A DNA stretch of 64,000 nucleotides, taken from the IMG/VR virus record IMGVR_UViG_3300044623_001092. One strand, given 5' to 3'. This DNA comes from a virus. Under the pieces are notes generated by a model. The model saw only the letters and a list, made by a program, of their open reading frames with translations. It was not told where the DNA came from and searched no databases. The position numbers and the translations under genes are program-made. This document shows positions 3,170 through 44,440 of this stretch, one piece after another (positions within the stretch are counted from its first letter, which is position 1; every line of letters starts with the position of its first letter).

Positions 3170-3394
3170 ATGCCAACGGAAATAATCATAACTTCAGTTT
3201 CAGGTGCCACACCCTTTAATGTTTATATATGTGATGACCCAATTATAACATGTGTATATGTTGATACTATAACAGTTGCCAATATACCATACTCGTTTAA
3301 TGTCCCATCAATATTGGATGGTCAAACGTCGTACAATTTGAAAGTGGTGGATAATAATGGTTGCTCCGTTGAGGAAAATTTAACATTATTATGA
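3170..3394 (+). CDS. small putative virion protein, paralogue of the N-terminal domain of the 2644-aa protein
   Basis: I-I-x-x-G-x-x-P-(F/Y)-x-(V/I)-Y-(I/V)-C-D...C-V...S-F-x-x-P-S-x-x-D...K-x-x-x-x-x-G-C pattern shared with the 6788 ORF. Confidence 0.75.
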   Translation: MPTEIIITSVSGATPFNVYICDDPIITCVYVDTITVANIPYSFNVPSILDGQTSYNLKVVDNNGCSVEENLTLL

Positions 3395-4515
3395 GTTGTT
3401 CTACTGAATATTGTATTAGTAATACTAACCACCCTGAATACGATGATAATTTCACATCAAACGGTGATTATGATGGTTATCCTAGTTGGTCTGGGTTAAC
3501 TAATGGATATTATATATATTTTAATACTACAGGAACACAATGGTGTTTATCCTCATCATTAGGTGGGGCTTGTTTATTATCAGGTAAATCACCGTGTACA
3601 TCAGAGTGTCCCGACTTAAACGGTGCGTATTTTGGTTCTGGTATGTGTTTAACACCTACCCCAACCCCAACGAATAATTGTGATATTTTAAATTTCGAAT
3701 CGTTTTTTGATTGTGAGGTTATACCAACTCCAACACCTACCCCAACTCCGACACAAACCCCTACAATGACTCCAACACCAAGTTCAACAAACTATTGTTC
3801 AATTGTGGAAGTTGTTGCAACAATCAATTCATATTCACCAACACCAACTCCAACACCAACAATTACACCGTCATCTTCAGGGATTATTGAAAGACCTTGT
3901 CATTTTTATGGTGACGCTACTTTCAATACGGTAAACGATATGATTAATTGTCCTATCAGTAAACAATTTCAAGATTGTTATAACGGGACAATGTATTACA
4001 CAACAAATAACGTAACTAACCCATCAGGGGGTGAAATTACTCAATATATGGTCTTTAACTCATTAGTCGATGGGTTAACTAAATGTATATCTTATGTTGG
4101 TACAACGAATCAAATTAGTGGGGTAAATAACATAATTTTAAGTTCAGGTCCTTATGGTTACTCTAACTTAGGAGGTTGTAATTCATGTATACCAACGCCA
4201 ACGCCAACACCTACATCAACAATGACACCAACACCAACACCTTCAATAACACCAACACCTTCAATAACACCAACACAAACTAAAACACCTACCCCAACCC
4301 AAACACCAACAACAACCCAAACACCAACAACAACCCAAACACCAACAACAACACCAACAACAACACCAACCCCAACCCAAACACCAACAACAACCCAAAC
4401 ACCAACAACAACACCAACCCAAACACCAACAACAACCCAAACACCAACCCCAACAACTACCCCAATAGTTCCAATACTTTGTGGTATATCGGGTTACACA
4501 TATGATATTTCATAA
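3391..4515 (+). CDS. Cys-rich, Thr/Pro-repeat (mucin-like) putative virion/fibre protein
   Basis: 374 aa with several (TP)n tracts, a C-terminal TPTTTQ array and Cys-rich globular segments. Confidence 0.75.
   Translation: MSCSTEYCISNTNHPEYDDNFTSNGDYDGYPSWSGLTNGYYIYFNTTGTQWCLSSSLGGACLLSGKSPCTSECPDLNGAYFGSGMCLTPTPTPTNNCDILNFESFFDCEVIPTPTPTPTPTQTPTMTPTPSSTNYCSIVEVVATINSYSPTPTPTPTITPSSSGIIERPCHFYGDATFNTVNDMINCPISKQFQDCYNGTMYYTTNNVTNPSGGEITQYMVFNSLVDGLTKCISYVGTTNQISGVNNIILSSGPYGYSNLGGCNSCIPTPTPTPTSTMTPTPTPSITPTPSITPTQTKTPTPTQTPTTTQTPTTTQTPTTTPTTTPTPTQTPTTTQTPTTTPTQTPTTTQTPTPTTTPIVPILCGISGYTYDIS
4302..4452 (+). repeat. 18-bp tandem repeat (acaccaacaacaacccaa) encoding TPTTTQ
   Basis: Near-exact tandem copies with indel variants visible in the sequence. 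Confidence 0.8.
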
Positions 4516-4537
4516 ACATGAAAAAAATTAATTAAAT

Positions 4538-6736
4538 ATGTCATTTTCAGCATCAACTTGTTTAACTAACACAGGAACAACAACATTAAGTTCTACGTTA
4601 ACAATATACAGTAATCCAATTTCACCAACAAGTCCAGGTACTTATGTAACTACTGTACCAACGACAGATATAACAGGAGGCAACTGTCCTTATACTTTTG
4701 AAGTTCCTGATGGTACGACAATAATAAGATTATCAGACCCAATTAGTGGTTGTTATTGTGATATACCTGTTAGCGATAATAATATGTGTACAACTTGTGA
4801 TTTGAATTTCAATACTTTTACATCCCCATCAGTTGGTAATATTGTTGCTGGTGATATCACAGGAACTTGTGACGCAAGTGTGTCTAACTACTTAATTTAT
4901 TGGTACGATGTAACAGACCCATTAACACCTATTTTCAAATTCAGTTCAGGTAAAGGGTCAATGTTTACACCATACGATAATATACACCCATTAACGGGTA
5001 CATCATCAGTTTTAGCAACATCAGGAACTTATGATGCAATATTGGAAAAAATAGAACTTAATGGTGTTGTTTTTTCAAGAACAGGTGGAACGGGGACTGT
5101 TTTGGCTGATTTAGATTGTTTACCATCAATAATTAACGGTGACCCTTTTGTAATATCAGCATTAAATTGTAGTAATGGTGGTGATAGTTCTAATTTACCA
5201 CAATATGAACATAGATTCGCATATTCAGCAACTACAGGTGGTAATTTACCTACACCATTAAGCACTACATTTGAATTATCCGCAGGTACCAAATACTTCC
5301 CATGGAAATTTCAAGGAAATTCAGTACCCGATAAAATCAAATTAACATTGGTTGCTAACGCTTATGGTGACGTACCAATAATTGTAGATTATTGGGATGT
5401 TGGTGATTTACCAAGTAATAATTCAACTCCAACAATATTTCCTAAATCAGCGGACACTACAAGTTTTTTCAGTAAGATAACCGTTTTAAGTGCGTTTACA
5501 ATAAGTAATGGTGATAATATACTAATTGAGGTGACACCATCAACCGCAAATACACAAACAAGTTGGACATTTTATTGTGGATGTTTAGACGAAATTAATT
5601 GTTTTGATTGTACACCAAGTACAGGTATGACAAGTGGTGGTACAATTAGTTATCAATTCCCTATAAGCGCAACAACATTTACCGCATATACAGGAAGTTG
5701 TAACGCAATTACTATTCAATATAAGGTTTATCAAGATTGTAGTTATTCTAATTGGACCGCTAGTACCGAGTACCAATATATGAATGGTAATGGTATTGAA
5801 CCAAATAATTTAGTTAATAAGTCAGGAACTCTGTATGTTAACTCAGTATCCTGTGGTGTCGCATCAAGCCCGACTTCCTCTCAATCATGTTTAAATTACG
5901 GAGCACCAACCGATATAACATATGAAAAAATACCTGGTTTATTCACCATAACATCCAATAATTCAACAGTTATTAGTGACCATTATAATAGATATATAAC
6001 TGCACTCGTCCCGTATATATCAACATTTTCAGGTGATAATACTAATGTTGGGTATTATAGGCACTTTTACGTAGAATGGCCAACATCAACGGGAATCACT
6101 CCTTGTGGTGATGGTACCACATCAAAAACCCTTCGTATTCATCAATCATCAATTGTAAGTACAGGTATGACAGGTAGTGATTACTACATATCATTCACTC
6201 TACCAACTGTCACAAACGGAATAACATTTACAAGTTGTGATTTAAATTGTAACAACAATGTGAATCAAATGGTAGTAAATATTAACACATCTTCAACAGG
6301 AAGTACTGAAAATTATACAGGAACAACCAATGTTGGTTCTTCATACCAATATGTGTTTTATAACGTTTTTTATTTAACTAGTGGTTCTACGAGTTCAGAT
6401 ACACTCACTGTTGGTTCATTATTGACTTTAGAAAATACTCATAATAACACATATCCCGCATCAGGTGAAACACCAACATTAATACCATCACTTTCGGGTG
6501 TCACATGCCCTAACATATTAAATAATATGAGTATAAGTTCTCCAATTCGTTATATTAAATACACATCCTATTATACTTGTAAGTTAATCAATCCAACAAA
6601 TCCATTGTCAACTGATATTAATATTTTTTCAAATTACATACCTATGAATGGTAATCCCAATCCCACTATACAAACCTTAATTGCTCAATATATTGGTGGT
6701 GTACTGAATATAATTGATTCTGATTATTTCGTGTAA
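4538..6736 (+). CDS. Ser/Thr/Gly/Cys-rich beta-structured putative virion protein (732 aa)
   Basis: Long ORF in the plus-strand island with composition typical of fibre/appendage proteins; no family recognised. Confidence 0.7.
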   Translation: MSFSASTCLTNTGTTTLSSTLTIYSNPISPTSPGTYVTTVPTTDITGGNCPYTFEVPDGTTIIRLSDPISGCYCDIPVSDNNMCTTCDLNFNTFTSPSVGNIVAGDITGTCDASVSNYLIYWYDVTDPLTPIFKFSSGKGSMFTPYDNIHPLTGTSSVLATSGTYDAILEKIELNGVVFSRTGGTGTVLADLDCLPSIINGDPFVISALNCSNGGDSSNLPQYEHRFAYSATTGGNLPTPLSTTFELSAGTKYFPWKFQGNSVPDKIKLTLVANAYGDVPIIVDYWDVGDLPSNNSTPTIFPKSADTTSFFSKITVLSAFTISNGDNILIEVTPSTANTQTSWTFYCGCLDEINCFDCTPSTGMTSGGTISYQFPISATTFTAYTGSCNAITIQYKVYQDCSYSNWTASTEYQYMNGNGIEPNNLVNKSGTLYVNSVSCGVASSPTSSQSCLNYGAPTDITYEKIPGLFTITSNNSTVISDHYNRYITALVPYISTFSGDNTNVGYYRHFYVEWPTSTGITPCGDGTTSKTLRIHQSSIVSTGMTGSDYYISFTLPTVTNGITFTSCDLNCNNNVNQMVVNINTSSTGSTENYTGTTNVGSSYQYVFYNVFYLTSGSTSSDTLTVGSLLTLENTHNNTYPASGETPTLIPSLSGVTCPNILNNMSISSPIRYIKYTSYYTCKLINPTNPLSTDINIFSNYIPMNGNPNPTIQTLIAQYIGGVLNIIDSDYFV

Positions 6737-6787
6737 AAAAGTTCACTATAGGTTTAAATAATTTAAAAATCAACTATTTATTATTGA

Positions 6788-9700
6788 ATGACATCTATTG
6801 AGATTGCTAACATAACAGGGTTATCATATCCCTATCAAATATACGTTTGCGACGTGTTTGGCAATCAGTGCGTACTGATTGCTACGATAAATACGTCAGT
6901 ACCTCCAAGTACTAGTTTCATATTACCAAGTCAATTTGATAATGCGCCAGCCGTCGGAGTTAAAATAATGACAAGTGATGGTTGTGAACGATTTGAAATT
7001 GTTTACTGTAACGTATTGGTTGCAACTCCTACACCTACTCCTACACCAACACCTACACCAACTCCAACACCTACCGTAACTAAAACCCCAACTCAAACAC
7101 CAACAAATACCGTAACACCAACTAACACTTCAACACAAACACCAACGAATGCTATAACACAAACACCAACGAATACTTCAACTCAAACACCTACTAATAC
7201 CGTAACTAATACACCAACTAATACGGAAACTCCAACTAACACACCAACACCCACAGTAACTAATACTGTAACTCAAACACCTACTAATACCGTAACTGAA
7301 ACACCTACTAATACTCCAACAAGTACTGTAACTGAAACGCCCACTAATACTCCTACTAGTACTGTAACTGAAACACCAACTAATACTCCAACGCCAACTA
7401 ATACTGAAACACCGACTAATACACCTACTAATACGGTAACAGAAACTCCTACGAATACCCCGACTAATACTACAACCCCAACATCAACAGTTACTGAAAC
7501 ACCGACTAACACACCAACCAATACCCCAACCAACACTATAACACCAACTGTTACTGAAACGCCAACTAACACTCCGACTAATACTATAACACCGACCGAA
7601 ACACCAACTAACACACCAACTAACACGTCAACAATAACACCATTTAACCCAACTAGTACACCAACATCTACTGTAACTGAAACTCCAACTCAAACACCTA
7701 CTCCTACTGTAACTGAAACACCAACAAATACTCCAACATCAACGGTAACCGAAACACCAACAAATACTCCAACATCAACTGTAACTGAAACTCCTACTAA
7801 CACTCCAACTAACACTCCAACTCCAACCAACACAGAAACCCCTACTAATACGCCAACCTCAACTGTTACCGAAACACCAACACAAACACCTACTAATACT
7901 CAAACCCCAACTAACACAGTTACTCAAACTCCAACAAACACTGTAACACCAACTAACACTTCAACACAGACTCCGACTAACACGCCTACGAATACTCCAA
8001 CGAACACCGTAACTAATACCGTTACTCCAACAAAAACTTCTACGAATACACCAACGAATACCCCAACAAATACGCCTACGAATACTGTTACACCGACAAA
8101 TACTTCTACTCAAACACCAACCAATACATCTACTAACACACCAACGAATACTGTTACACCAACGAATACTTCAACTCAAACTCCGACTAATACTCCCACT
8201 AACACATCTACGAATACACCAACACAAACACCAACGAACACAGTAACTAATACCGTTACTCCGACTAACACGTCGACAAATACTCCAACTAATACACCAA
8301 CAAATACTGTAACTCCAACCAATACTTCTACTAATACGCCTACGAATACTCCAACTAATACAGTGACTAATACTGTAACACCAACAAGGACTTCAACTAA
8401 CACACCTACGAATACTCCAACCAATACTGTAACGTCAACTATTACCCCAACTAATACTTCAACCAACACACCTACAAATACACCTACAAATACGGTTACT
8501 CCAACTAATACTTCAACCAATACTCCGACTAACACACCTACGAATACATCAACAAATACTCCTACAAATACTGTTACTCCAACTAACACACCTACGAATA
8601 CACCTACAAATACTGTTACTCCAACAAGGACTTCAACCAACACACCTACTAATACACCAACAAATACTATAACACCTACTAACACTTCAACTAACACACC
8701 TACAAATACTCCAACGAACACTGTTACACCAACAAGAACTTCAACAAATACTCCAACTAATACACCTACTAACACTGTAACACCAACAAGAACTTCAACA
8801 AATACTCCAACTAATACACCTACTAACACTGTAACACCAACAAGGACCTCTACCAATACCCCTACAAACACTCCAACGAACACTGTTACACCAACTAATA
8901 CTTCAACCAACACACCTACAAACACTCCAACGAACACTGTTACACCAACTAATACTTCAACCAACACACCCACAAACACTCCAACGAACACTGTTACACC
9001 AACTAATACTTCAACCAACACACCTACAAACACATCAACACAAACTCCGACTAACACACCAACAAATACTGTAACACCAACTAACACACCTACTAATACT
9101 TCTACTAACACACCTACAAATACACCAACTAACACACCTACTAATACTCCAACACAAACACCTACTAATACTCCAACGAATACTGTTACACCAACAAGGA
9201 CTTCAACAAATACTCCGACTAATACACCTACTAACACCCCAACGAATACGGTAACACCGACCAATACTGTAACTCAAACACCGACTAATACACCTACAGG
9301 AACTCCATTGGAGACTCCAACAAACACACCAACAAGAACATCAACTAATACCCCTACAAACACTCCAACGAATACTATTACCCCAACTAATACTTCTACT
9401 AACACCCCAACTAATACACCAACAAATACTGTCACATCCACAATTACCCCAACAAATACTTCTACTAATACCCCAACAAACACTGTGACACCAACTATTA
9501 CACCGACTAACACTTCAACAAACACACCTACGAACACTGTAACACCTACAAGAACTTCAACTAATACTCCGACTAATACTTCTACTAACACCCCAACGAA
9601 TACACCTACAAATACTGTTACTCCAACAAGGACTTCAACCAACACCCCAACTAATACACCTACAAATACGGTTACTCCAACAAATACTTCAACCAACACC

Positions 9701-12700
9701 CCTACGAATACTGTAACACCAACAAATACTTCAACTCAAACCCCTACGAATACTGTAACACCAACAAGAACTGCAATGAACACTCCTACGAATACCCCTA
9801 CAAATACTGTTACATCAACTAACACCCCAACGAACACTTCGACTAATACTCCTACGAATACGCCAACAAACACTGTAACATCAACTATAACTCCGACCAA
9901 TACTCCTACGAACACACCAACAAAAACTGTTACACCAACCAATACTTCTACTAACACACCTACAAATACACCGACTAACACCCCAACGAATACTGTAACA
10001 AATACACCTACAAAAACAGTTACCCCTACGAATACTCCTACGAATACTCCAACTAACACACCAACGAATACAGTTACACCAACAAGGACTTCAACAAATA
10101 CTCCAACTAACACACCAACGAATACAGTTACACCAACAAGGACTTCAACAAATACTCCAACTAACACACCAACGAATACAGTTACACCAACAAGGACTTC
10201 TACCAACACCCCTACGAATACACCTACGAATACACTGACACCAACAAGGACTTCAACAAATACTCCAACTAACACACCAACGAATACAGTTACACCAACA
10301 AGGACTTCTACCAACACCCCTACGAATACACCTACGAATACACTGACACCAACAAGAACTTCAACTAACACCCCTACGAATACACCTACGAATACACTGA
10401 CACCAACAAGAACTTCAACTAACACCCCTACGAACACTTCGACTAATACTCCTACGAATACGCCTACGAACACTGTCACACCAACAAGAACCGCAACTAA
10501 TACACCGACTAATACCTCAACAAATACACCAACAAAAACCCCTACACCAACAAAAACCCCAACGTCAACTTTGGGTCTTACAAATTATTTAGCACAACAA
10601 TGTTGCCCAACAACTCAATATTGGACATTACCTAATGGTAGTTTTACCGATTTCTCAACGGCAATACCTTTTGTTGATTGTGAGGACCCTGGAGTTTGTT
10701 ACAGGTCTATAAGAGATGGTGCTATAACACGTTATTGTAATAGTGGTATTACTTTATCAGTAGATTGGACTTACGAAACACAACCTTGCGGAGCGAAAGC
10801 GATTAAATCATTAAGTCCAATTTGTTCTGATAGTTATTGGTATTTTGTACAAAATAATGATTCAACACTTAACGTATATCAAATTGCTGATAATGGTTCT
10901 GGTTATGATATCTACAGTGATGTAGGTTGTTGTTCAGAAACTTATATGTCAGATTTAACTAACTCAACAACAGGAACTACTCCATCATTACCAAACTGTA
11001 ATTTTTCGTACACAGGTTCAGGTTTATTCGATTGGTTTAATCGTATTATTGATTTATCGGGTGATGACCCTAATTTACATTTCTACCCTTACTATAATTC
11101 AGGAACAACACAATGTTTAGTTAGTGGTAACGTTAATACTCAAGTAGTATCAATAACGAATAATTATTCTCCGTTGAATAAGACAGTTAAACTAAGTGAT
11201 GGTAATTGTTATAATATTATTTCAATTACAGGTGAAACGTCAACAACTACTTGGGTTCCACCAACATTATATAATGATTGTTTAACTTGTTCATTAACAA
11301 TTACTCCAACACCAACAAGAACCAATACACCAACACCGACTAAAACCCCAACACAAACACCTACAAACACTATCACACCAACTAAAACACCTACAAATAC
11401 CATTACACCTACAAACACTCCAACGAATACTTCTACGAATACCGTTACACCGACTAATACACCAACCAATACTGTAACTCCAACAAGAACACCGACTAAT
11501 ACTCCAACCAATACCGTAACTCCAACAAGAACACCGACTAATACTCCAACTAATACACCAACTAATACACCAACAAGAACCGCAACTAACACGCCTACAA
11601 ATACTGTTACACCAACAAGAACTGCAACGAACACTCCTACGAATACACCTACGAATACTATAACCCCAACTAATACTCCTACGAATACTGTAACACCAAC
11701 CAATACCCCAACGAACACTTCGACTAATACTCCTACGAATACACCAACAAGAACTGTTACACCAACAAGAACCCCGACTAATACGCCAACTAACACACCT
11801 ACAAATACTCCGACAAATACTGTTACACCAACAAGAACTGCAACGAACACTCCAACAAGAACCGCAACTAATACACCAACGAATACTGTTACTCCAACAA
11901 GAACCGCAACTAACACTCCTACAAACACCGTTACACCAACCCAAACAATTACCCCAACCCCAAACCAAACTTGTTTTACATACCCATCAGACCAAACTAA
12001 TATCATAATACCATCATCAGGTATTTCATCTGTTTACCCAATAACATTTACTATTTCAGGTTTAGTTACTGCAATTAGTGATGTTAAAATAACATTAAGT
12101 GGATATTCCCACACCTCAGTCGGAGATGTCGGTATGTTATTGGTAGCACCTGACAATACAAGTTGGTCATTACTATCAGGTAGAGTTGGAGCGGTTAATA
12201 ATGCGGTTAACGCTAACGTAACCTTAACAAGTTTTAGTTCACCAACATGGAATGGATATAGTTCAGGAACATTTAAAAATAATACATTGGTCGGTAACTC
12301 AATGCCATTCTCAGCACCATGTCCAACAACATTTGTTACGGGTAACTCACCTGAATTTACAATTTTTGATGGGTTACAACCACCTGTTTCAAATGGTCTA
12401 TGGAAATTATATATTCAAGATTTCTCAGTTATAGATTCTGGTACATTATCAGGAGCAACATTGGTTATTTGTTCTGAAAATACAACACCTACACCAACAC
12501 CAACTAATACTGTTACACCAACAATTACCCCGACTAATACGCCAACTAACACACCAACAAGAACTGTAACTCCAACAATAACTCCAACTAATACACCAAC
12601 AAGAACTGTAACACCAACAAGAACTTCAACTAATACTCCAACTAACACGCCGACAAACACTCCAACAAATACAGTTACACCATCTATAACACCAACCAAT

Positions 12701-14722
12701 ACCCCAACTAACACACCAACAAGAACTGTAACTCCAACAAGAACCCCAACTAATACTTCAACTAACACGCCGACAAACACACCAACTAATACAGTTACAC
12801 CAACAAGAACCCCGACTAATACGCCAACTAACACACCAACAAGAACCGCAACTAACACGCCGACAAATACTGTTACACCTACAAGAACCGCAACTAACAC
12901 GCCGACAAATACTCCAACAAATACAGTTACACCATCTATAACACCAACCAATACCCCAACTAACACCGTAACAAGAACTGTAACACCAACAAGAACTCCA
13001 ACTAATACTTCAACTAACACGCCGACAAACACACCAACTAATACAGTTACACCAACAAGAACCCCGACTAATACGCCAACTAACACACCAACAAGAACCG
13101 CAACTAACACGCCGACAAATACTGTTACACCTACAAGAACCGCAACTAACACGCCGACAAATACTCCAACAAAAACTGTTACACCATCTATAACACCAAC
13201 TAACACACCTACTAACACCGTAACAAGAACTGTAACACCAACAAGAACTCCAACTAATACTCCAACATCAACAGTTACACCGACAAGAACACCAACGAAT
13301 ACTCCAACACCTACTAAAACACCTACTCCAACACCAACATCAACATGTTTTAGTTATACTTTAGTTGGTACAGGTCGTTCAGGTGGTCAGTTCACATTTA
13401 CACCTTGTTGTACTAACGTTTATAATTCACCTGTTACTTTGAGTGCTGAGGATGGAGTATCAACAACTCAAGTATGTTCAAGTACATTACCTGTTTTATC
13501 AAGTGGTGGAGGAACAATCACGTTAAATGGTACATGTGATTATTGTGGTGATTGTTATTGTTTTGATTTGGCGGGTGGTGGATATACTTATATTGATTGT
13601 TCAGGGACAACACAAACTATTTTGACGTTGGCGACTACTGTATGTTCATCAAGTTATGTAGTACCAGATAGCTTTTCATCATCTTTCTCTAGAAGAGGAT
13701 TCTGTAGTGGTGGTATATGTCCAACACCAACACCTACACCAACACCAACGCCGACCATAACTGTTACACCGACAAGTACTTGTATTGGATATAACTTAAC
13801 TTACAACGGTGCTGAGTTAGGGTCATCAAGTGTTGCTTTTACACCATGTTGTAGTAATTCAACTGTGAATCCACGAGGGATGGGAATAGAAAGACCTTTT
13901 TTCTCAATTTGTTCAACAACTACACCTGTCGTTACTAATCTTAATGGTGGTAGTGTCTCAGTAGTTTCAACAGGTGTTTGTCCATGTACTACACCTACAC
14001 CAACACCAACAGTCACACCAACTAAAACAAATACACCAACACCCTCAGTTACTCCTAATTTTGTATCTGCGAATTTAATGATTCATTATGATTATAATAA
14101 TACATCATCATACGTTGGGACAGGTACATTAGTTAACGATTTAACGTCCGATAATATTACATCAACATTAACAGGCGGACCAACATTCAGTGGGTCACCA
14201 TTTGGTGTTATGAATTTTGATGGTGCTGGCGACCATACCTCATCCATCCAAAACGCCAATCTGTCAGCAATAACTAGCACGGTAACTTGTGAAGTATGGG
14301 TAAGACCTATTGATGTAAGTTTAGGTTCTGAAAAACAATTAGTAAATTATAATAATAACTTAGGTTTCAGAGCTAGAATAAACACAGATGGTTCAGTTGA
14401 AGCTATATATAACAACGGTGGAAGTGTCGATACCCTTCTAACCAGCCCTTCTTTAATTTTAAGTTCTACATGGTACCAAATAACTGTTGTATACCAAAAC
14501 ACATTGGTGAGTATTTACAAAAATGGGGCATTAGTAACCTCAGTTTTTGGATTAGGATTAAGCATGAACGCAACAAACACTAATATTCAATTTGGAAGAA
14601 TGTCTCCAGGTACTGAATGGTTTAAAGGTGGTTTAGGTATAATGAGAGTGTATAACTCAGCATTATCGGCAGCACAAGTCTTACAAAATTTTAATTTTAA
14701 TAGAGGAAGATTTGGTATATAA
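6788..14722 (+). CDS. giant mucin-like fibre/adhesin (2644 aa): N-terminal domain, three T/P/N repeat arrays, Cys-rich domains, proprotein-convertase P-domain-like module, C-terminal LamG/ConA-like domain
   Basis: P-domain-like signature [20 protein letters not shown]...[10 protein letters not shown]....DSGTL; LamG signature MNFDG.GD...T.EVWV...WYQITVVY....IYKNG...FKGGLG.MRVYN.ALS..QV.QNF. Confidence 0.85.
7024..10570 (+). repeat. coding low-complexity array 1 ([12 protein letters not shown] units)
   Basis: About 1180 codons of degenerate 12-bp-based repeats; exact 54-bp tandem at 10043-10200. Confidence 0.9.
11302..11965 (+). repeat. coding low-complexity array 2 (TPTN/TRTA units)
   Basis: Visible in translation and DNA. 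Confidence 0.9.
12482..13345 (+). repeat. coding low-complexity array 3 with a 252-bp higher-order repeat
   Basis: tccaacaaa...acaccatctataacacc recurs at 12661, 12913 and 13165. Confidence 0.85.
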
Positions 14723-14737
14723 GGATATTTATATAAT

Positions 14738-14986
14738 ATGTTCGAAAATAGAGTATTTATAATAATTTCAACCGTTGAAATTCCATTTATTAATTTTGAA
14801 GAGATTTTATTCAAATCTTACAATGACCTTATTTTGTCGGTGAACAAAACTAAAACAATTTTAAAATGGGATGGTCCTACAACACCATCATTTTACGATA
14901 ATTTAAATACTAAGGAAGGTCCATATACTATTAGTGAGATTACTCAAATTTTGTCAACACCTGAATGGTACATAGAAAGTAATTAA
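14738..14986 (+). CDS. hypothetical protein (82 aa), possible fibre accessory/chaperone
   Basis: Preceded by TATTTATA (14726-14733) and follows the fibre gene; function inferred from position only. Confidence 0.65.
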   Translation: MFENRVFIIISTVEIPFINFEEILFKSYNDLILSVNKTKTILKWDGPTTPSFYDNLNTKEGPYTISEITQILSTPEWYIESN

Positions 14987-15011
14987 AAAAAAAGGGAAGT
15001 AATAACTTCCC
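14985..15011 (-). terminator. intrinsic terminator between convergent transcription units
   Basis: GGGAAGT-AATA-ACTTCCC hairpin with an A-run on the left (U-tract on minus strand). Confidence 0.7.
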
Positions 15012-15035
15012 CATAACATTTTAATATTTAATTTT

Positions 15036-15644
15036 TTACCAAACCTCAATTTGATTCATAAAACCAAGGACACAACAATAGGCATCGGTTTGGTCAAAAT
15101 TTTCTTTCTTTAAAGTATTATTTTTGGTGTATAACCATTGAATTTGAGGTTCAAGTTTAGCAATTTTCTCCCATATAATCATTTTCTTATCAATGTCTTT
15201 AGGTAGACCACCAAACAAAACAAACTTACCTTTATCATTCTGTTGAACCAACTCAGGGAAAGCAAATTTTCTTGAGTTATAAGTCGATATAAATTCAGGT
15301 ACTATACCAAGGATATCGTAAATTTCTTTACAGATAAAACTATTAAACCTCATTAAAACTTGTACAGTATTAATATTATTTGAGTTCAACAAAGGTTCTT
15401 CAATAATGACTCTAACAATTCCTAAATTTTTATATTCTAAAAGTTTAGTATTAAAAACCTCAGCCTTTAACAATAAATCTTTAATTTTACTGTTATCTTG
15501 ATTTTCTGTAGATTTAGGTCTAGGTGAAATATGTGTCAATTCCAAAAGTTCTTTACTTTGGATGTCAAATAATGCCCACCCTATTGTTCGGGTTGAAACA
15601 TCTAATCCTAATACTTTTGGGCTTTCTTTTAATGTTTTACTCAT
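15036..15644 (-). CDS. ruvC: RuvC-like Holliday junction resolvase
   Basis: VLGLDVSTRTIGW, VIIEEP and DQTDAY RNase H-fold acidic motifs; start placed at MSKTLK. Confidence 0.8.
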   Translation of the reverse strand: MSKTLKESPKVLGLDVSTRTIGWALFDIQSKELLELTHISPRPKSTENQDNSKIKDLLLKAEVFNTKLLEYKNLGIVRVIIEEPLLNSNNINTVQVLMRFNSFICKEIYDILGIVPEFISTYNSRKFAFPELVQQNDKGKFVLFGGLPKDIDKKMIIWEKIAKLEPQIQWLYTKNNTLKKENFDQTDAYCCVLGFMNQIEVW

Positions 15645-15648
15645 AAAT

Positions 15649-18135
15649 TTAAAAATCAAATTTTATTACAAACTGTTGAATTCCGAGCCGTGGCGTAGGA
15701 GATTGTAGTTTAGATATAATCATAAGGTCGTCGTTCAAATCGTAAAGACCAATTTCAGTAATATATAGTTGATTACCATTTACCCAACCAGGATTTGAAC
15801 TTGCTTGGAACTCAGCATCACCCAAATTGATTTTATATCTCATTTCATATATTGTTGCTTGTACGTCAGTTTCAACAGTACCATAGAAGTAATATTCATC
15901 ACCAAAGTTTAGTTGGTGACCACTAAATCCAAGTGGTGTTAATTCAATATAATCCGATAAATCATATGATGGGGCGGCATCATATAAATCTTTACTAATA
16001 ACAAAAGTAGTACCTGTTAATCCATCTGCCGTAATATAACCATTAATCGTTGTCGCCGATAATATATCGGTATAATCAATAACTTTCCATTCAGTAGGGT
16101 CAGGTCTACCATCACCAATTACTTTTTGACAAATAATTTCAAATTTATCAGCAAAGAATCCTGTCGATAAATCGCATACATCAGGACAAAGTGTTGTACT
16201 CGTTGTTGTGTAAACACTTGTGGTTGTTGTTGTAATAACACTTGTTGTTGTTGTAGTCGTAGATGGTGAATACGATTTATAATTTAAACAATTAAATTCG
16301 GACCCAAATCTTACTGAGACATTTTGAGGTCCAATGTCTAAACAAGATAAATTAGGTCCTTGTATTTTAGTATAATAGTTACAATGTAACGAATTTGTAA
16401 AAGAATATTGATTACCCAATCTATAAGTAATGTATAAGTACTCAGTATTACCCGTTAAAATCCCCTCACTTGATTGATTTGATGGTCCACAAGTGTTTGG
16501 CGTAGTTAACCCTACTTTAGGAGCTGGTAACGTCCAATTTCGGTTTGATTTATATGATAACGATGCAATAATTTCTTCATCATCAATAATAACAATTTTA
16601 TGGTCAGGAAATACCTTACCAATTCTATTCGGTAAACCATTAATACTTGGGTTATCATCCCATAAATGATAATAACGAATACCAGGTGTGTTCATATCAA
16701 GGTTTTTCTTAGACTCAATATAGCTAGGCTGAAATAAGTCAAAATCCTCAAACCCTGGAGGGTCTACCCAAAATGTTTGTCCTTGACAACAATCAGGATT
16801 TTTATGCCACATCAATGATGGTAAACTAATTTTGAAGTTTCTTGCTTGTCCAACAGTATCTTCAGGTAATGTTGGGTCTAAAGGTTGTAACGCAAATTTT
16901 TCACCATAATAAAAATCAATTGTCTGATTGGTATAATGAATAATAGCAATTGCCTTTTGTTCTTCAGGTTGGACCTTAACAATCTCACTAAATGAATTAT
17001 AATAATATGTATCGGTCGTTTCAGCACTTAAAGTTGGGTCAACGTAGAATGTTTGACCTGAACTTGATTGATACCCTAAATATTCTTTAGTACCCACATA
17101 TTGTGCGGAACCAAACTTAGAAAAACCTTTAACAACATCACCATCTAATCCAGCTAAATCTTCTGACCAAGGAATATTCATATTCCATATCTTAACATCC
17201 AACTCATCAGTATCACATAACGATTCAAAATTAATAACATCAGTATTGTAATGATTTAATGGTGTAACACTATCATATAGGTTAGTCATATTAGGTGGGT
17301 AAATAATAGTTCTAGCGTAACACACACTTAATAAATCACCATAATCAGGTGTTGGTCTGTCTAACGTAATCTCGTTATTACAAACATCTAAAATTCTATA
17401 AGTTAAAATACCATAACAACTAAACATGCTCATACCACAATTAGGTATATCAACAGGTGTTGGTGTTGGGAATACCGTAGTTGTTGTTGTCGTAGTATCA
17501 CACGGTAAAGTTGTTGAGGTTGTCGTAGTTGGCGATAAGGTAGTTGTTGTTGTTGTTGTAGTCGATGTTGTACCACATCCACAATCATTTTTAGCTCGAC
17601 CATCAAAATAAATTGTGATTAAATCACCAGCCTGTGGTAATCTTGCTATATTTGTATTACAACCTGAATAAATAACAGTAATCACATCACTACCTGTTAA
17701 TGTTGACATATCAATCATGTAGTTAGAATTAATAACATGTTGATTATCCGTAAACGCACTCCAATATGTAAAGTTGTCTAACGTAATTCCTGTGAAGAAA
17801 CCTCTCGGTTCCGCTCTGTTATAGACAGGACTATCAATCGAATCCATATATGGTATACCATACGTATTACCTGTAAATCCTTTTACATAATACGGATATT
17901 TAATATTCTGTTTGTTTGATTGGGGAGCCCCACTTGAATTCTGAGCATTAAATGCTGGTTCCAATATCATCGTCTCTAATTGATTGTATGATGTTGGTAA
18001 GACATTATAAGAAACCTCACTATCACCAATTTGGAAATAAGATATGTTAAAATTACCTTGTGATAATTTTTCTCTCCCCGTATCAGTTAATCTACTGTTA
18101 ATTAACGCTGATGTATTTTTTAATATATAACTCAT
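15649..18135 (-). CDS. baseplate/tail-collar fibre-attachment protein with Thr-rich inserts
   Basis: N-terminal LTDTGREKLSQG....YFQIGD and C-terminal ITEIGLYD...LMIISKL..P resemble tail-collar fibre (DUF3751-like) halves; two poly-Thr tracts. Confidence 0.6.
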   Translation of the reverse strand: MSYILKNTSALINSRLTDTGREKLSQGNFNISYFQIGDSEVSYNVLPTSYNQLETMILEPAFNAQNSSGAPQSNKQNIKYPYYVKGFTGNTYGIPYMDSIDSPVYNRAEPRGFFTGITLDNFTYWSAFTDNQHVINSNYMIDMSTLTGSDVITVIYSGCNTNIARLPQAGDLITIYFDGRAKNDCGCGTTSTTTTTTTTLSPTTTTSTTLPCDTTTTTTTVFPTPTPVDIPNCGMSMFSCYGILTYRILDVCNNEITLDRPTPDYGDLLSVCYARTIIYPPNMTNLYDSVTPLNHYNTDVINFESLCDTDELDVKIWNMNIPWSEDLAGLDGDVVKGFSKFGSAQYVGTKEYLGYQSSSGQTFYVDPTLSAETTDTYYYNSFSEIVKVQPEEQKAIAIIHYTNQTIDFYYGEKFALQPLDPTLPEDTVGQARNFKISLPSLMWHKNPDCCQGQTFWVDPPGFEDFDLFQPSYIESKKNLDMNTPGIRYYHLWDDNPSINGLPNRIGKVFPDHKIVIIDDEEIIASLSYKSNRNWTLPAPKVGLTTPNTCGPSNQSSEGILTGNTEYLYITYRLGNQYSFTNSLHCNYYTKIQGPNLSCLDIGPQNVSVRFGSEFNCLNYKSYSPSTTTTTTSVITTTTTSVYTTTSTTLCPDVCDLSTGFFADKFEIICQKVIGDGRPDPTEWKVIDYTDILSATTINGYITADGLTGTTFVISKDLYDAAPSYDLSDYIELTPLGFSGHQLNFGDEYYFYGTVETDVQATIYEMRYKINLGDAEFQASSNPGWVNGNQLYITEIGLYDLNDDLMIISKLQSPTPRLGIQQFVIKFDF

Positions 18136-18155
18136 ATAATATTTTTTTAATTTTA

Positions 18156-19628
18156 TTATTCATACAACGATTGATTAAGAACACTACAACAATTACAACC
18201 TGTAATGCTAGCGTTAGTAACAAACGAATTAGTGGTAGCAAAATTAGCACTACAACAACCACTACCAGTTGCCGTCACACCATATTTTAATGGCCCAAGA
18301 GGTCCATCACCCAAATCAACGTTATCATACTCATTTGGTAATGGTGTTGGTTCAGGTGTTTGACTTTCAAATAATGCTTGTGGTGGTGGTGGATTATTAC
18401 ATGTTAACAGATAATCAGTTATTAACTTAATACTATAAACATCCGTTGAATTAATAGTTAAGTCAGTATAGTTACGATTAAAATTCGTCTGATACTTCAA
18501 ATAATTAGTACAACCTGGTGTCGTATTAGCAACCGTTGTTACGACATCATTATCAACACTTGGTATTGTTAAACCATTTTTAATAATTTCTGTGGTATAC
18601 GATTTAGTTGCCGAATTAAGATAAGGCGTTTGAGTAAACATTCCAGAAAAATCCATATTAAACTTAATTGTTGTTCCATCATTAGGTAATGATGGTGTAA
18701 TATTTACAACATACGTATATTCGTAAGATGTACTAGATACCTGAACCGTAGAAAATATATTCATTGATATAGTATAAACCGTCATAGGTTCACTAGTGAA
18801 TATTACATTACCTGATTGAGATGATACAATTGTACCTTCACTATCCTTAATTTGAGGTGTAAAAGTCACATCAGGACATAAGTTATTGAATAATGGATTA
18901 CTCACCCATGTTGTTCCCCCATTTACCGAATATTGATATGGTGGTACACCTCCAAGACCTTGTATTGTTATTGAAGCATCACAACTTGTACATGATGGGT
19001 TATTTTTAGTTACCATTAATCTTAAATTACCAACATTAACACATTCACCTTCAGTTACAGTTACAGTACCTTGATTACCCAACATTAACCACCCACTTAA
19101 TGGTGGATAGGTAGGGTCGTTATTAATAACCGTTAAATTATTTACAGTATCAACCAACTCCCAACGATTATCAACGTTATCCCAAACGATGGTATATAAA
19201 ACATCATCTGAAATCCAACTTTGTTTACCATTCACAATCCCATTAGGATTAAAATAAATAGATAAATCAACCACACTATCACCTTTAAAATAATGAATAA
19301 CCATACAGAAATCATACGTAATAATTGGTGATGTTGTTGTTGTTGTAGTTGTTGTTGGGACAACAGGCCCTGTTAATACACAAGTAGTATTTGCAGTAAA
19401 ATCACCATAATAATCAACAATCGTTGCAGGATACGAACCTGCCGATAAATTATTAATTGCAAATGAACTATTACCATTTTCCCAAGTAATATTGTAAGGT
19501 GGTGTTCCACCTGTAACAATTAAAGTTGCAGTACCATTAGACGCATTCTGTCCACTAGGATTAGTTACTTGACACGCAACCCCAAGTGGGAATATTACTA
19601 TAGGTTGACACTCATTATTTTCAGGCAT
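18156..19628 (-). CDS. SprB-repeat putative virion protein with Thr tract
   Basis: NG.ATL.VTGGTPPYNITW.NG......NLSAGSY...IVD and GGVPPYQYSVNGG repeats; PTTTTTTTTSP. Confidence 0.75.
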   Translation of the reverse strand: MPENNECQPIVIFPLGVACQVTNPSGQNASNGTATLIVTGGTPPYNITWENGNSSFAINNLSAGSYPATIVDYYGDFTANTTCVLTGPVVPTTTTTTTTSPIITYDFCMVIHYFKGDSVVDLSIYFNPNGIVNGKQSWISDDVLYTIVWDNVDNRWELVDTVNNLTVINNDPTYPPLSGWLMLGNQGTVTVTEGECVNVGNLRLMVTKNNPSCTSCDASITIQGLGGVPPYQYSVNGGTTWVSNPLFNNLCPDVTFTPQIKDSEGTIVSSQSGNVIFTSEPMTVYTISMNIFSTVQVSSTSYEYTYVVNITPSLPNDGTTIKFNMDFSGMFTQTPYLNSATKSYTTEIIKNGLTIPSVDNDVVTTVANTTPGCTNYLKYQTNFNRNYTDLTINSTDVYSIKLITDYLLTCNNPPPPQALFESQTPEPTPLPNEYDNVDLGDGPLGPLKYGVTATGSGCCSANFATTNSFVTNASITGCNCCSVLNQSLYE

Positions 19629-19653
19629 TATTATTCTGTTTTTATATAAATAA

Positions 19654-20643
19654 TCAGTTATTCCGTTTTTGTTGAATTAACGACTTCATAACTTCAATAT
19701 ATTTTATGGTTGAACTATTCTTTTCAATAAAATCAAAATAATTAGGGTCACTTTCAATCTTTTTTAAGGGGTCCTCATTAATATATTCCCCTTTATAAAA
19801 TTTCCTATCTTTTAAATCTTGAGTCACTCCCGCCATATGAAGAATTGGTTTCTTTTCATATATTACAATATCATCTGTCGCCCATGAAAAATCTAATTCT
19901 TTTGTTATTTTAGTTTCTTTACCAAAATACCATAGATTCCATAAGACCGACCACATTTCCGCAGTCCAAAATTGTATTTCACCAGGACTGATTGGGTATC
20001 GTTTTTGATAACTCATCATTTGGTCATATAATGGAACACAATCATTATATATCTTTTCCCACATCTTAGCGTCAGTGTCTTTAATAATATATTGACCACC
20101 ACCCGAATTCTCTTGATTACATTTAACACATTCAACATCAACACCAATAACATCAACCATTTCTTGAATCAATTGACCTTTATTTGAATTGGGGTGTTGT
20201 TGCTCATATCTTTCACAACAATCCATAATATAGTTATAACCAATATAACCCACAGTATCCGATACATATGTTATGTCATCATCTAATAACGCTTTAAAAT
20301 CAGGTAATTCTCTAAAGATGATATCAGCGTCATGTAAAAAAAATGACTTACCATATTGTGGATTCTCCACCAACCATTTATAGATTAAAAATGGTTTAAT
20401 ATTTGGTATATAATGTTTTCGTTCTCTATCATCTAAATAATGATGAACATTAATTCCTAATTTTTTTAATTCTAAAGATTCTTCACTAGGTTCTTTTTTA
20501 CCCTGAACCATTGCTAGCACAACATGAATATTATTGGGGTTAATACCTTTCTCGATGAAATTATGTACATAAACCTTAATTTGCCAATGAAAATATGGGA
20601 CATCAGGTTGTGCTGAAACAAATACTAAATTATTAAAATCCAT
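19654..20643 (-). CDS. GT-A fold glycosyltransferase, HPAT/peptidyl-serine galactosyltransferase (GT95/GT96)-like
   Basis: Ordered motifs YFHWQ, YIPNIKPF...KWL, HDADIIF (DxD), GGGQYII, WTAEMW, ILHMAG. Confidence 0.7.
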   Translation of the reverse strand: MDFNNLVFVSAQPDVPYFHWQIKVYVHNFIEKGINPNNIHVVLAMVQGKKEPSEESLELKKLGINVHHYLDDRERKHYIPNIKPFLIYKWLVENPQYGKSFFLHDADIIFRELPDFKALLDDDITYVSDTVGYIGYNYIMDCCERYEQQHPNSNKGQLIQEMVDVIGVDVECVKCNQENSGGGQYIIKDTDAKMWEKIYNDCVPLYDQMMSYQKRYPISPGEIQFWTAEMWSVLWNLWYFGKETKITKELDFSWATDDIVIYEKKPILHMAGVTQDLKDRKFYKGEYINEDPLKKIESDPNYFDFIEKNSSTIKYIEVMKSLIQQKRNN

Positions 20644-20703
20644 CTTCTTTTAAATTAAAAATATTAAAGAAGTCAATTTAATAAATGATAATATATTAAT
20701 CTT

Positions 20704-21243
20704 TTATGCGATAGTTGTTGTAGTTGTAGTAATTTGGTTAAAATTAGGTATTGTTGATTGTTCAAACTGTTCATCCATAAGTAACACCATAACATTTTTA
20801 ACACAACACATTACTTCCGCCTCCAAGACCTGGTATTCTTCAGCAATTGTTATGTCAAAAGTACCGTCACCATAATCAACGGTAAAACTAAGAGTGTCCT
20901 GACCCCCACTTATATTTGGAATAATTAAGGTTTCATTTTGAACACCTGTTTGGGGGGTACAAATCATCATATTCCAAAAAACCAAATATTTTTTATGATA
21001 ATCCAAATAACACACTTCCCAAAAATCAATATAAATTTTCTGTTCGAACTCAGGCTCACATGGTTCTCCAGAAATACAAACAGATGTCACATCAATATAA
21101 TTACTAAACGACTTAAAAAACGCATTTTTAGTTTCGGTTGCGGTAGTATACATGTTTTCCCAAGTTGAGCAATCCGATTCAGTTGTTCCTGTTCCGAATA
21201 TCCCTAAGTTAATATAATCACAATTATCGTAAAAAAATGCCAT
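20704..21243 (-). CDS. hypothetical protein with C-terminal Thr tract
   Basis: 179 aa, acidic and Cys-containing, ends ITTTTTTIA. Confidence 0.65.
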   Translation of the reverse strand: MAFFYDNCDYINLGIFGTGTTESDCSTWENMYTTATETKNAFFKSFSNYIDVTSVCISGEPCEPEFEQKIYIDFWEVCYLDYHKKYLVFWNMMICTPQTGVQNETLIIPNISGGQDTLSFTVDYGDGTFDITIAEEYQVLEAEVMCCVKNVMVLLMDEQFEQSTIPNFNQITTTTTTIA

Positions 21244-21254: not shown

Positions 21255-24146
21255 TTAAAATTTATATTTAAATATTTGATATAATGGTGCGTGAAATGTC
21301 GCCCAAGTAAATGGTTTCCAAGCAAGTAACAATTCATTTAATGCTTTAAAATAAGCTTGAGATTGACTTCTTTGTGCAAAATCACAATCCTCAATATCAG
21401 GATAACCAATTATCACAGTACCATAAGGTGTCCAAGTATTAGTATTTGGGTCCCACTGATAAAAAAGATTATCATCTATAACAAAACAAAACGTACCAAA
21501 GTTGCTAGTTAACGGTAAATCACCATATGATTGTACCTCAGTCAAATATACTATATCAAAATCATATTGAGGCCCGATAAGACCTTCATCAGCAAATATT
21601 TTTTTACAACTACATCCTTGTAATACGTTAAATTTATACCAACCAATATTATTTTGTCCATAATCATAAAAATCAAATTCTTCGGCCGATGGTGGTAATA
21701 CAACCGTTAAATTTTCCGCGGCAGTTATAAGACCGTAAGTAAGGTATCCATTATACTCATTTTGATATTTAAGGTAAGCCATTCTAATTTGTTGGAATTG
21801 TTGTTCAACACCAGGAATTACACCTTGACAATCGTTAGGATTATAAAAAGGTAATTCAGTACATCTACTAGGGATGAAATCCGAATCACTTAGGTAATCC
21901 GCCCCAAAATAATTCCAAGTTATCGGAGAAATAACTTTAGTATCAGTAGTTTCACAATATTCATTAGTTATTTCACAATTTATCGGTATAAATTCAGGAG
22001 TATAACATCCTGTACACAATTCACATGATATATCATAATATATAACCATATTAATCACAACATCAGCGTCATTTAACGATACTATACTATTACAATCGGT
22101 TGTTATAGTCATTTTATTTTCTTCAACATCGAAGGTAACCGAAGCTATCCCATCATAACTAAGTAACATAGACTCAATAACATCATCCCACTCATTCACC
22201 GTTGGATATTCATTTAATGTAGTTCCTGTATAAAATTCTTGGGTTGTCGTCACACCACTAACGGTTACTGAAGCTTCAAATATAGATTGATTTAAAACAC
22301 AATTAAATTCATTTAGAGTCAACTCATAAAACCCTTCCAATAACATTTGTTTAGGTCCTTTAGTTAATAACTCACCATAATTAGATAAATCAGAGTCACA
22401 CACATTATAAACTTGATATGACGATACAAATACATTACCATCAATAGTTACCGTTCTAATTTTCTCACAATCATTACTATCAACAACCTTTAATGTGTAA
22501 GTTCCCGCAGATAAATTATTAACAGTCATACCTGTTTGACCATTTACGTTTGAACTCCACGTTAACACGAATGGTGGTATTCCACTCGTTATTAGTGCGG
22601 TAATGGTCCCATTATTACCAACCGTTGAATCAGTTGACGTTAATATAAAATCAACCCCACTAGATATGTTTACACTATCAACAATTGTTTGAGTACAACC
22701 ATTGTTATCCGTTACGTCAACACTATGAATTCCAGAAGATAAATTGGTGAAGGTATGGGAAGTTAATGAAGTAATTACTATTTCATCCCCATCTAAAGTA
22801 TAGGTATAATTAGGTGAACCTCCCGATATTATAACCTCAAAAACACCGTTATCATTACCACATGTTGTTCCTGTAACGTTTGAAGATAAATTAAACGTAT
22901 TATCATTTTCAATAGTAAATGAATTGGTATAGTCACAAGGCCCATTATCAGTAATGGATATGGTATAATCACCATAGGTCAAATTATTAAACGTCCATGT
23001 GGTACTTGGAAGTGTTTGGGTTGTTGTTGTACCTCCAACTTTAGTTAGTGTATAAACATATGGAGGTGAACCACCATTTAAATTCATTGTCACAAAACCC
23101 GAAGACCCACAAACAGAAGGTGAATACGAAAAAGACACCACCGAGAATCCACCTGGAGTTAATAAAGTAGCAATTCCCGACGCGGTACATAGACCTGAAT
23201 CCGTAATTAAAATATTATAATTACCACTTGAGACATTTGTAAATGTATATTCAGCGTCAAAAGTAAAATAATTACCAATTGATGATGCTGAAAAGTTATA
23301 AGGTGCGGTACCACCCGTTACCACAACTGTAATTTCACCATCAGAACTATAACAAGATGGGTCAGTAGTTAATATTGTTGCAATTCCAAGTGGGGGCACT
23401 TGACTAACCAAAGTCGTCTTACTAACAGAACAACCTGTATTATCCGTTACCGTAACATTGTATCCACCTGTTGTTAAACCTGTTAATGTTGAACCTGTAG
23501 TTCCATTTGACCATAAATAAGTGTAAGGTGGGTTACCCGTTAAACCCGTGATAAAAATTTTACCTGAATTAACCGCACAACCCGCATCATTAACCACATA
23601 AAATCCATAGTCAACTGTATTTGAGTCTTGTATAATAATCGTTTCACTTTTACCCGTACAACCACCACCATCATCAGCAACAACATAATAAGTACTAGCA
23701 GATAAATTAGTGAACTCGAAAGTCTCATACGTAGTTAATGCCGAAGTTATAAAACCATTATCGTAGTCGTATAAGTAAAATATCGCATTCCCAAACATAT
23801 TCGTAGTTGTTGCAGTAACACTACCGTTATCATTACCACATAAAGTATTAGTAAACCCATCCACTGAAACACAAGTACCACTTGATATATAAACGTTAAC
23901 AGGTATTACTGTATTTATTGGGTTACAACTATCAATAATTGTAAATGAATATGTGGATGCCGATAAGTCAGTTACCGTATATTCAGTAACACCTACACCT
24001 AACGCTATCGTACCATAAGAAGAAGGTGTTAACCATTGTATAGTATAATCAGGAGCAGTCCCCGTAATTTCGATAGTAAACGCCCCGCTATTAGTATTCG
24101 AACAATCACCTGTAATACTTAAACTATATGAAAGAGGACAAGCCAT
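21255..24146 (-). CDS. multi-SprB-repeat putative virion adhesin/fibre protein
   Basis: About 7 repeats of C....G.I.....GG..PY.Y.W.......NL..G.Y...V.D..GC. Confidence 0.8.
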   Translation of the reverse strand: MACPLSYSLSITGDCSNTNSGAFTIEITGTAPDYTIQWLTPSSYGTIALGVGVTEYTVTDLSASTYSFTIIDSCNPINTVIPVNVYISSGTCVSVDGFTNTLCGNDNGSVTATTTNMFGNAIFYLYDYDNGFITSALTTYETFEFTNLSASTYYVVADDGGGCTGKSETIIIQDSNTVDYGFYVVNDAGCAVNSGKIFITGLTGNPPYTYLWSNGTTGSTLTGLTTGGYNVTVTDNTGCSVSKTTLVSQVPPLGIATILTTDPSCYSSDGEITVVVTGGTAPYNFSASSIGNYFTFDAEYTFTNVSSGNYNILITDSGLCTASGIATLLTPGGFSVVSFSYSPSVCGSSGFVTMNLNGGSPPYVYTLTKVGGTTTTQTLPSTTWTFNNLTYGDYTISITDNGPCDYTNSFTIENDNTFNLSSNVTGTTCGNDNGVFEVIISGGSPNYTYTLDGDEIVITSLTSHTFTNLSSGIHSVDVTDNNGCTQTIVDSVNISSGVDFILTSTDSTVGNNGTITALITSGIPPFVLTWSSNVNGQTGMTVNNLSAGTYTLKVVDSNDCEKIRTVTIDGNVFVSSYQVYNVCDSDLSNYGELLTKGPKQMLLEGFYELTLNEFNCVLNQSIFEASVTVSGVTTTQEFYTGTTLNEYPTVNEWDDVIESMLLSYDGIASVTFDVEENKMTITTDCNSIVSLNDADVVINMVIYYDISCELCTGCYTPEFIPINCEITNEYCETTDTKVISPITWNYFGADYLSDSDFIPSRCTELPFYNPNDCQGVIPGVEQQFQQIRMAYLKYQNEYNGYLTYGLITAAENLTVVLPPSAEEFDFYDYGQNNIGWYKFNVLQGCSCKKIFADEGLIGPQYDFDIVYLTEVQSYGDLPLTSNFGTFCFVIDDNLFYQWDPNTNTWTPYGTVIIGYPDIEDCDFAQRSQSQAYFKALNELLLAWKPFTWATFHAPLYQIFKYKF

Positions 24147-39052: not shown

Positions 39053-39058
39053 AATTTT

Positions 39059-42025: not shown

Positions 42026-42043
42026 ATCAATTATAATATTTTA

Positions 42044-42991: not shown

Positions 42992-42992
42992 A

Positions 42993-44411: not shown

Positions 44412-44440
44412 ATGTTTTTATATTGTATTAATCATAAATA

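Follow-up and report, generated by a model that had tools for sequence, protein, structure and literature searches.

The DNA considered here is a stretch of 64,000 nucleotides from a virus (IMG/VR record IMGVR_UViG_3300044623_001092, the whole of which is called the window), and the gene of interest encodes a protein of 329 amino acids (aa) on its minus strand. We consider it likely that this protein is a dedicated cytoplasmic O-glycosyltransferase that acts on disordered threonine (Thr) runs of virion proteins, and that phages possessing such an enzyme probably sugar-coat their own particles. Support comes from the fold, the conserved residues of a metal site, the position of the gene, and a link to poly-Thr that is both statistical and visible in gain and loss. 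A sequence-only reading of the window had already proposed a mucin-type O-glycosylation system of this kind, and the computationally testable parts of that interpretation are supported. The term mucin-type is meant as an analogy and does not imply homology to the GalNAc transferases.

Fold and conserved residues of the enzyme

The assignment as a glycosyltransferase was originally suggested by six sequence motifs, and we hold it with high confidence. All six occur in the order described, namely YFHWQ (residues 17-21), YIPNIKP (78-84) followed by KWL (89-91), HDADII (104-109), GGGQYII (181-187), WTAEMW (226-231) and ILH (267-269). An alignment of 59 diverse family members with approximately 30-89% identity was used for conservation analysis and for structure prediction with AlphaFold2. 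In this alignment D107, H269, G272 and K284 are invariant, and D105 is conserved in at least 90% of the sequences. The DxD motif formed by D105 and D107 fits a metal site together with H269, which we take to be a metal ligand in view of what is known of GT8 enzymes. The predicted model is a confident GT-A fold, with a predicted local distance difference test (pLDDT) value of 97.4.

An exhaustive structural comparison returned 111 solved chains at Z of at least 8, and the top 26 are all glycosyltransferases. The best matches are glycogenin (Z 15.3), the cytoplasmic Skp1 α-galactosyltransferase (14.7) and LgtC (14.5), followed by UGGT (14.1), the GT8 half of WbbM (14.1) and GlyE, which belongs to the pneumococcal pathway for a serine-rich-repeat adhesin (13.8). 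The GT8-type matches (glycogenin, LgtC, Skp1 α-galactosyltransferase, GlyE and 3tzt) span Z 13.5-15.3, and Foldseek agrees on GT8-type solved matches with template modeling (TM) scores by query of 0.4-0.47. With enzymes such as glycogenin, Skp1 α-galactosyltransferase, LgtC and GlyE the 329-aa protein shares the GT-A core, the DxD motif and the downstream His-x-x-Gly...Lys pattern over 211-232 aligned residues, and several of the GT8-type matches act on proteins in the cytoplasm. It differs from them in sequence, with an identity of 9-12%, and in having extra helical elements. Neither the 329-aa protein nor any of the 59 members matched the GT8 profile PF01501. A GT-A-like fold could also serve to load Thr with a different group, such as a sugar-1-phosphate or a nucleotide, in place of a simple sugar, and hexose-1-phosphotransferases (GNPTAB, CpsY) and nucleotidyltransferases do appear lower in the list of fold matches, at Z 9-10. 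However, the GT8-type enzymes stand clearly above these, and the combination of DxD, H-x-x-G and Lys is that of GT8, which makes such a transfer very improbable.

The closest predicted fold outside the family is a cluster of Chlorophyta proteins, 99% of which belong to PF23452 (hydroxyproline O-arabinosyltransferase, HPAT). The TM score is 0.73 by query, over 294 aligned residues with a root-mean-square deviation of 4.0, both sides being predicted models, and it lies well above the values of at most 0.47 that Foldseek gave for solved GT8 structures. HPAT of plants and algae (GT95) and the peptidyl-serine α-galactosyltransferases SGT1/SERGT1 (GT96) glycosylate side-chain hydroxyls in repetitive, extended Pro/Ser-rich segments. 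The HPAT-likeness put forward in the sequence-only reading therefore stands for the fold but not for the sequence, where PF23452 is reached by 2 of the 59 members at a non-significant E of 0.09; in some viral clusters of the family 10% of the members reach it. The protein is thus described as HPAT-like in its predicted fold, with GT95 membership not demonstrated by sequence. A profile search among proteins of 593-2000 aa gave bacterial and viral fused forms only and did not return plant SGT1. The plant HPAT/SGT enzymes are Golgi membrane proteins, whereas the 329-aa protein has no membrane anchor and its acceptor would be Thr rather than hydroxyproline or Ser. Within the 64-kb window no prolyl hydroxylase was found. 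Since no hydrophobic or transmembrane segment is present in the enzyme (maximum Kyte-Doolittle 19-residue mean 0.81), cytoplasmic action is expected.

The sole family to which the protein could be assigned is PHROG 4417, annotated as of unknown function (E 6.5e-72). TAL-effector repeats, the only PDB match of the family profile, were rejected as spurious. Homologues of near-equal length number 1228 (E up to 1e-5), none of them annotated beyond hypothetical, and at E up to 1e-3 the family comprises 850 clusters at 50% identity. In longer relatives the domain is joined to PF11397 (Skp1-type GlcNAc-transferase), O-FucT, GT2, GT4, GT6, GT7C or GT32 domains. Some fused relatives (P0279, P0197, P0278) carry radical-SAM/SPASM, methyltransferase, or GT4 plus GT2 modules (1915 aa), which suggests more elaborate modifications in some lineages.

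The relatives fused to other glycosyltransferase domains are relevant to a scenario in which the enzyme does not modify Thr itself but extends a sugar that another host or phage enzyme has first placed on virion glycoproteins. Skp1 α-galactosyltransferase, XXYLT1, UGGT and GlyE, all close in fold, lengthen protein-attached glycans, and the visible 64 kb is part of a probably much larger genome. Against this, the top match glycogenin glycosylates a protein side chain directly, a second glycosyltransferase was not found within the window, and the structural modules examined of small siphoviruses of Bacillota (36-40 kb) contain one candidate glycosyltransferase only. We regard a role in extension as unlikely and prefer direct transfer to Thr.

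Association of the enzyme with poly-Thr tracts

The sequence-only reading held that the enzyme co-occurs with Thr-rich virion genes, and this co-occurrence proved strong in a reverse test, in a forward test and in comparisons of gain and loss. For the reverse test IMG/VR was scanned for nine consecutive ACN codons, which returned 118 loci, 99 of them with an in-frame run of at least eight Thr. The enzyme is present in 9 of the 118 ACN loci and in none of 118 loci with nine TCN codons (poly-Ser), which are similar to the poly-Thr loci in GC content and total length (Fisher p 0.003). In each of the nine enzyme-bearing ACN loci the poly-Thr open reading frame (ORF) borders the enzyme gene on its upstream side and has the same orientation.

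The forward test used species-dereplicated bacterial genomes and counted Thr-rich windows, defined as at least 7 Thr in 12 residues, within 6 kb of the enzyme gene. Such a window accompanies stand-alone forms of up to 400 aa in 28 of 39 cases, fused forms in 7 of 41, and control viral loci in 20 of 118. The difference is significant for stand-alone versus fused forms (p 1e-6) and for stand-alone forms versus control loci (p 6e-10). In many prophages of Bacillota, tails of five to nine Thr (T5-T9) end three proteins, a capsid-sized one of approximately 390 aa, one of about 110 aa, and a tail-tube-sized one of about 205 aa.

Cultured phages were searched with tblastn (E up to 1e-3), which gave 77 records with a homologue, mostly phages of Bacillota. 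Nine lineages were examined: phiFL2A, phiCTP1, Bacchae, R3.3, 9183, PMBT8, bIL285, 1706 and Chryseobacterium MA9V-3. In all nine, Thr-tagged or Thr-run genes of the virion module adjoin or neighbor the homologue, and the proteins with Thr tracts are capsid, tail-tube, Ig-like or unannotated proteins. In siphoviruses the homologue is flanked by the tail-tube and chaperone genes or comes behind the capsid gene. It directly follows the 3' end of the tail-tube gene in phiFL2A, phiCTP1, PMBT8 and 1706 and lies 3' of the capsid gene in 9183, bIL285 and R3.3, while in the herellevirus Bacchae it is preceded by the gene of an Ig-like 'major tail protein'. The tagged proteins bear Thr tails, for example T8, T10 or T16, a few residues ahead of their stop. 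In Chryseobacterium MA9V-3 the two genes just upstream hold internal windows with 10 and 11 Thr in 12 residues. As a separate observation on Lactobacillus phage Bacchae, the consecutive proteins of 170, 116 ('major tail protein') and 65 aa around its enzyme gene (5057-7167) have Thr-rich C-terminal parts, and more than half of the 116-aa protein is Thr-repeat.

The gain and loss of the tails follows the enzyme. Both capsid and tail-tube proteins carry poly-Thr tails in the enzyme-positive phages phiFL2A and R3.3. Six related phages were compared, namely Bassarid, phiJL-1 and ATCC8014, which belong to the genus of R3.3, and the streptococcal prophages Javan47, Javan505 and Javan377. In the 17-18.5 kb of structural module examined, these have no detectable enzyme and no run of T5 or longer, and their proteins stop where the tails start in the enzyme-positive phages. 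The tail-tube protein of phiFL2A has homologues in 76 phage records. In Enterococcus phage phiFL2A (NC_013643.1, 5001-5910) and in phiFL1C the match to the enzyme is split into two parts that lie in separate frames, with a 30-aa gp49 as the sole annotation. The gene may be frameshifted, or the sequence may contain an error; long poly-Thr tails are nonetheless retained on the capsid and tail-tube proteins.

These data bear on a different possibility, in which the acceptor is not a protein but a host envelope polysaccharide, teichoic acid, lipopolysaccharide or phage DNA, and the Thr runs are coincidental flexible linkers. Several observations weigh against our interpretation, and some of them favor such an acceptor. 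Thr/Pro runs also act as plain linkers and are frequent in fibre-like proteins. LgtC and WbbM, which are among the top fold matches obtained with the predicted model, are enzymes of lipooligosaccharide and O-antigen synthesis. The fused bacterial forms, found in Chitinophaga, Pedobacter and Acidimicrobiia, mostly lack Thr-rich neighbors (the 7 of 41 given above), so a tie to poly-Thr does not hold across the entire family, and acceptors may differ. The 118 control loci are phylogenetically unmatched to the test loci. The 329-aa protein has no sequence match in Pfam (E up to 0.1), NCBIfam or PDB, and the 179-aa protein encoded next to it in the window has a C-terminal T6 tail that its closest relatives lack. 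Finally, Thr is assigned as the acceptor through association alone. On the other hand, a non-protein acceptor would not readily account for an enzyme gene that abuts the poly-Thr gene in every enzyme-bearing locus of the reverse test and is missing from all poly-Ser loci, nor for phages of the same genus that have capsid and tail-tube Thr tails only when the enzyme is present. Furthermore, the gene is found next to tail-tube and chaperone or capsid genes, outside early or lysogeny modules, and the enzyme has no membrane segment. A non-protein acceptor is therefore considered improbable, and glycosylation of virion Thr runs is the interpretation we favor.

The enzyme locus in the window and its close relatives

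The window is AT-rich (32.6% GC). From its genes for tail-tube, baseplate, ribonucleotide reductase, DnaB and UvsX-like proteins, its source is assigned as a large myovirus. The enzyme gene belongs to an extended operon on the minus strand, which leads from baseplate-wedge genes (37214-39514) through large unannotated proteins and two SprB-repeat proteins to a RuvC-like gene. Within it the enzyme gene has SprB-repeat and fibre-like genes on its two sides and lies downstream of the baseplate genes. The arrangement reported in the sequence-only reading was found again in full: the enzyme gene lies within a structural operon, its three neighbors carry poly-Thr tracts, and an adjacent island encodes two proteins with Thr/Pro arrays. 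The features are as follows.

19654..20643, minus strand: 329-aa soluble protein with the GT-A glycosyltransferase fold (P0001; PHROG 4417), DxD at D105/D107, H269-x-x-G272 and K284
20704..21243, minus strand: 179-aa protein encoded immediately 5' of the enzyme gene, C-terminal T6 (...ITTTTTTIA; DNA of the tail at 20713-20730), candidate acceptor
18156..19628, minus strand: 490-aa candidate acceptor with SprB repeats and a Cys-rich C-terminus, encoded immediately 3' of the enzyme gene, T8 linker spanning residues 92-99 (19332-19355)
15649..18135, minus strand: 828-aa protein conserved in the lineage, Thr runs at two fixed insertion sites, the first with T8, T4 and T7 at residues 192-220 (17476-17562) and the second with T6 and T5 at residues 626-639 (16219-16260), candidate acceptor
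21255..24146, minus strand: upstream 963-aa SprB-repeat structural protein, 13.8% Thr, longest run T4
15036-15659, minus strand: RuvC-like gene at the end of the operon
3391..4515, plus strand: 374-aa protein with PT/TPTQ arrays, 24% Thr and 13% Pro, no signal peptide, possible acceptor
6788..14722, plus strand: 2644-aa beads-on-a-string protein, 36.6% Thr, C-terminal Laminin_G_3 domain, possible acceptor

All runs of T5 or longer in the window are at most about 4 kb away from the enzyme gene, and runs of six to eight Thr cannot arise by chance at a Thr content of 8-14%. The island with the genes of the 374-aa and 2644-aa proteins is convergent with the minus-strand operon. In the 2644-aa protein some 2000 residues of TPTN-type arrays are placed between Cys-rich globular modules. 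ORFs of 117-362 aa antisense to this gene (7273-13218, minus strand) most likely arise from the repetitive ACN/CCN composition and do not represent genes.

Close relatives of the enzyme locus were collected as 80 loci with 59-83% identity. In 73 of these, runs of T5 or longer occur within 10 kb of the enzyme gene, and their density is 1.97 per 10 kb compared to 0.17 in control loci, an 11-fold difference. The runs cluster on the strand of the enzyme gene, in the first 6 kb downstream of it, and are mostly found inside homologues of the 828-aa protein. These homologues (53-78% identity) have two fixed, Cys-flanked sites at which Thr or Pro-Thr inserts of differing length are found. At the first site poly-Thr and PT arrays interchange, which gives indirect support for regarding both as one class. 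The AlphaFold2 model of the 828-aa protein has a pLDDT of 50, and its Thr regions are predicted to be disordered; Pfam, PHROG and Atlas gave no function for it. Its only PHROG match is of the poly-Thr stretch (residues 189-226) to the 'major tail protein' phrog_14018 (E 0.008). This match is probably due to low complexity, and it hints that the phrog_14018 family itself contains Thr tails.

In this lineage the Thr runs are internal and mainly downstream of the enzyme gene. The possibility that a conserved C-terminal poly-Thr tail is encoded directly upstream was considered for this lineage and rejected, as the upstream gene in the 80 relatives is hypervariable, fibre-like and seldom Thr-ended. 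A further homologue, 62% identical, adjoins a gene with T6/T7 runs on a 5.3-kb contig binned as Candidatus Woesearchaeota (CAYGYN010000024.1), which is probably a mis-binned phage contig and not archaeal.

Proposed mechanism and comparison with known glycosylation systems

In view of the above, the following mechanism can be considered. The 329-aa protein would be a soluble, cytoplasmic, metal-dependent GT-A glycosyltransferase, with a retaining mechanism implied by its GT8/HPAT-like architecture. It would be produced alongside the late baseplate and fibre genes and recognize disordered Thr runs of virion proteins. A sugar, probably a hexose from a UDP-sugar donor, would then be transferred to the Thr hydroxyls, giving patches of dense, mucin-like O-glycosylation on the particle. 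The candidate acceptors are the adjoining 179-aa, 490-aa and 828-aa proteins, possibly together with the Thr/Pro arrays of the 374-aa and 2644-aa proteins. Such glycosylation may shield the particle from proteases or antibodies, contribute to hydration and stiffness of linkers, or promote adhesion. When the enzyme was modelled in complex with the last 55 residues of the 179-aa protein, the score was 0.01, which was counted for neither side.

We lean slightly towards a more general proposal, which is that a poly-Thr tag and one dedicated cytoplasmic glycosyltransferase form a widespread pair that has gone undescribed, O-glycosylating capsids, tail tubes and fibres in phages of Bacillota, Bacteroidota and other phyla, with the enzyme being a prokaryotic or viral sister of plant HPAT/SGT. 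In the literature no description was found of the enzyme family or of a pairing of poly-Thr with a glycosyltransferase. To our knowledge, most documented cases of glycosylated phage particles come from a few mycobacteriophages, in which the modification changes recognition by antibodies. If the proposal is correct, particle glycosylation is common among phages and would obey a simple rule in which a Thr run is paired with one enzyme. Phages that carry the family infect lactic acid bacteria, enterococci, staphylococci, clostridia and Bacteroidota, and some of them are relevant to dairy production or therapy. The proposal would have consequences for the immunogenicity and stability of phages, for their adhesion to mucus or polysaccharide, and for studies of host range. 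The plant HPAT-type enzymes would gain their first prokaryotic or viral relatives with a predicted substrate, and a sister relation with HPAT/SGT would indicate a shared origin. The combination of tag and enzyme could also become a portable means of glycosylating proteins at chosen sites in bacteria.

In the chlorovirus PBCV-1 the major capsid protein is glycosylated by a GT-A enzyme that the virus itself encodes, A64R, which builds atypical N-linked glycans. This enzyme is from a eukaryotic virus, and as a fold match (Z 10.7) it is far more distant than GT8 or HPAT. The mycobacteriophages are closer in biology. According to Freeman et al. (2023, Cell Host Microbe 31:1216), as cited in PMC12619734 and PMC13313380, phage-encoded glycosyltransferases decorate the phage's own particle in Che8, Corndog and Myrna, and the glycans are located at the C-termini of capsid and tail-tube subunits (cited in PMC12619734). 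These are the positions at which poly-Thr tails occur in the enzyme-positive phages of Bacillota, and in the window and the siphoviruses the glycosyltransferase gene likewise lies within or beside structural genes. In contrast, no Mycobacterium phage is present among the 77 homologue-bearing records, which points to a separate enzyme family at the tblastn sensitivity used. The account of the mycobacteriophages in these citing sources also does not include a pairing with poly-Thr, hosts among Bacillota or Bacteroidota, or internal Thr runs in fibre-like proteins.

Concerning the origin of the window, megablast gave no match of the region to cultured phages. The nearest cultured relatives, recognized through a baseplate wedge protein, are Flavobacterium phages with an identity of only 26%. 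The phage may be a member of, or close to, the 'moraphage' lineage of large aquatic Bacteroidota phages described in PMC12619734, the core genome of which contains four glycosyltransferase orthogroups. No tRNA genes were found in the 64-kb window. A block of replication and nucleotide metabolism genes (39608-47861), encoding both ribonucleotide reductase subunits, a DnaB-like helicase, an exonuclease, a UvsX-like recombinase and SSB, is placed in an unusual mosaic order between the baseplate genes and two giant unannotated ORFs at 48919-55215 (2098 aa) and 55531-60333 (1600 aa).

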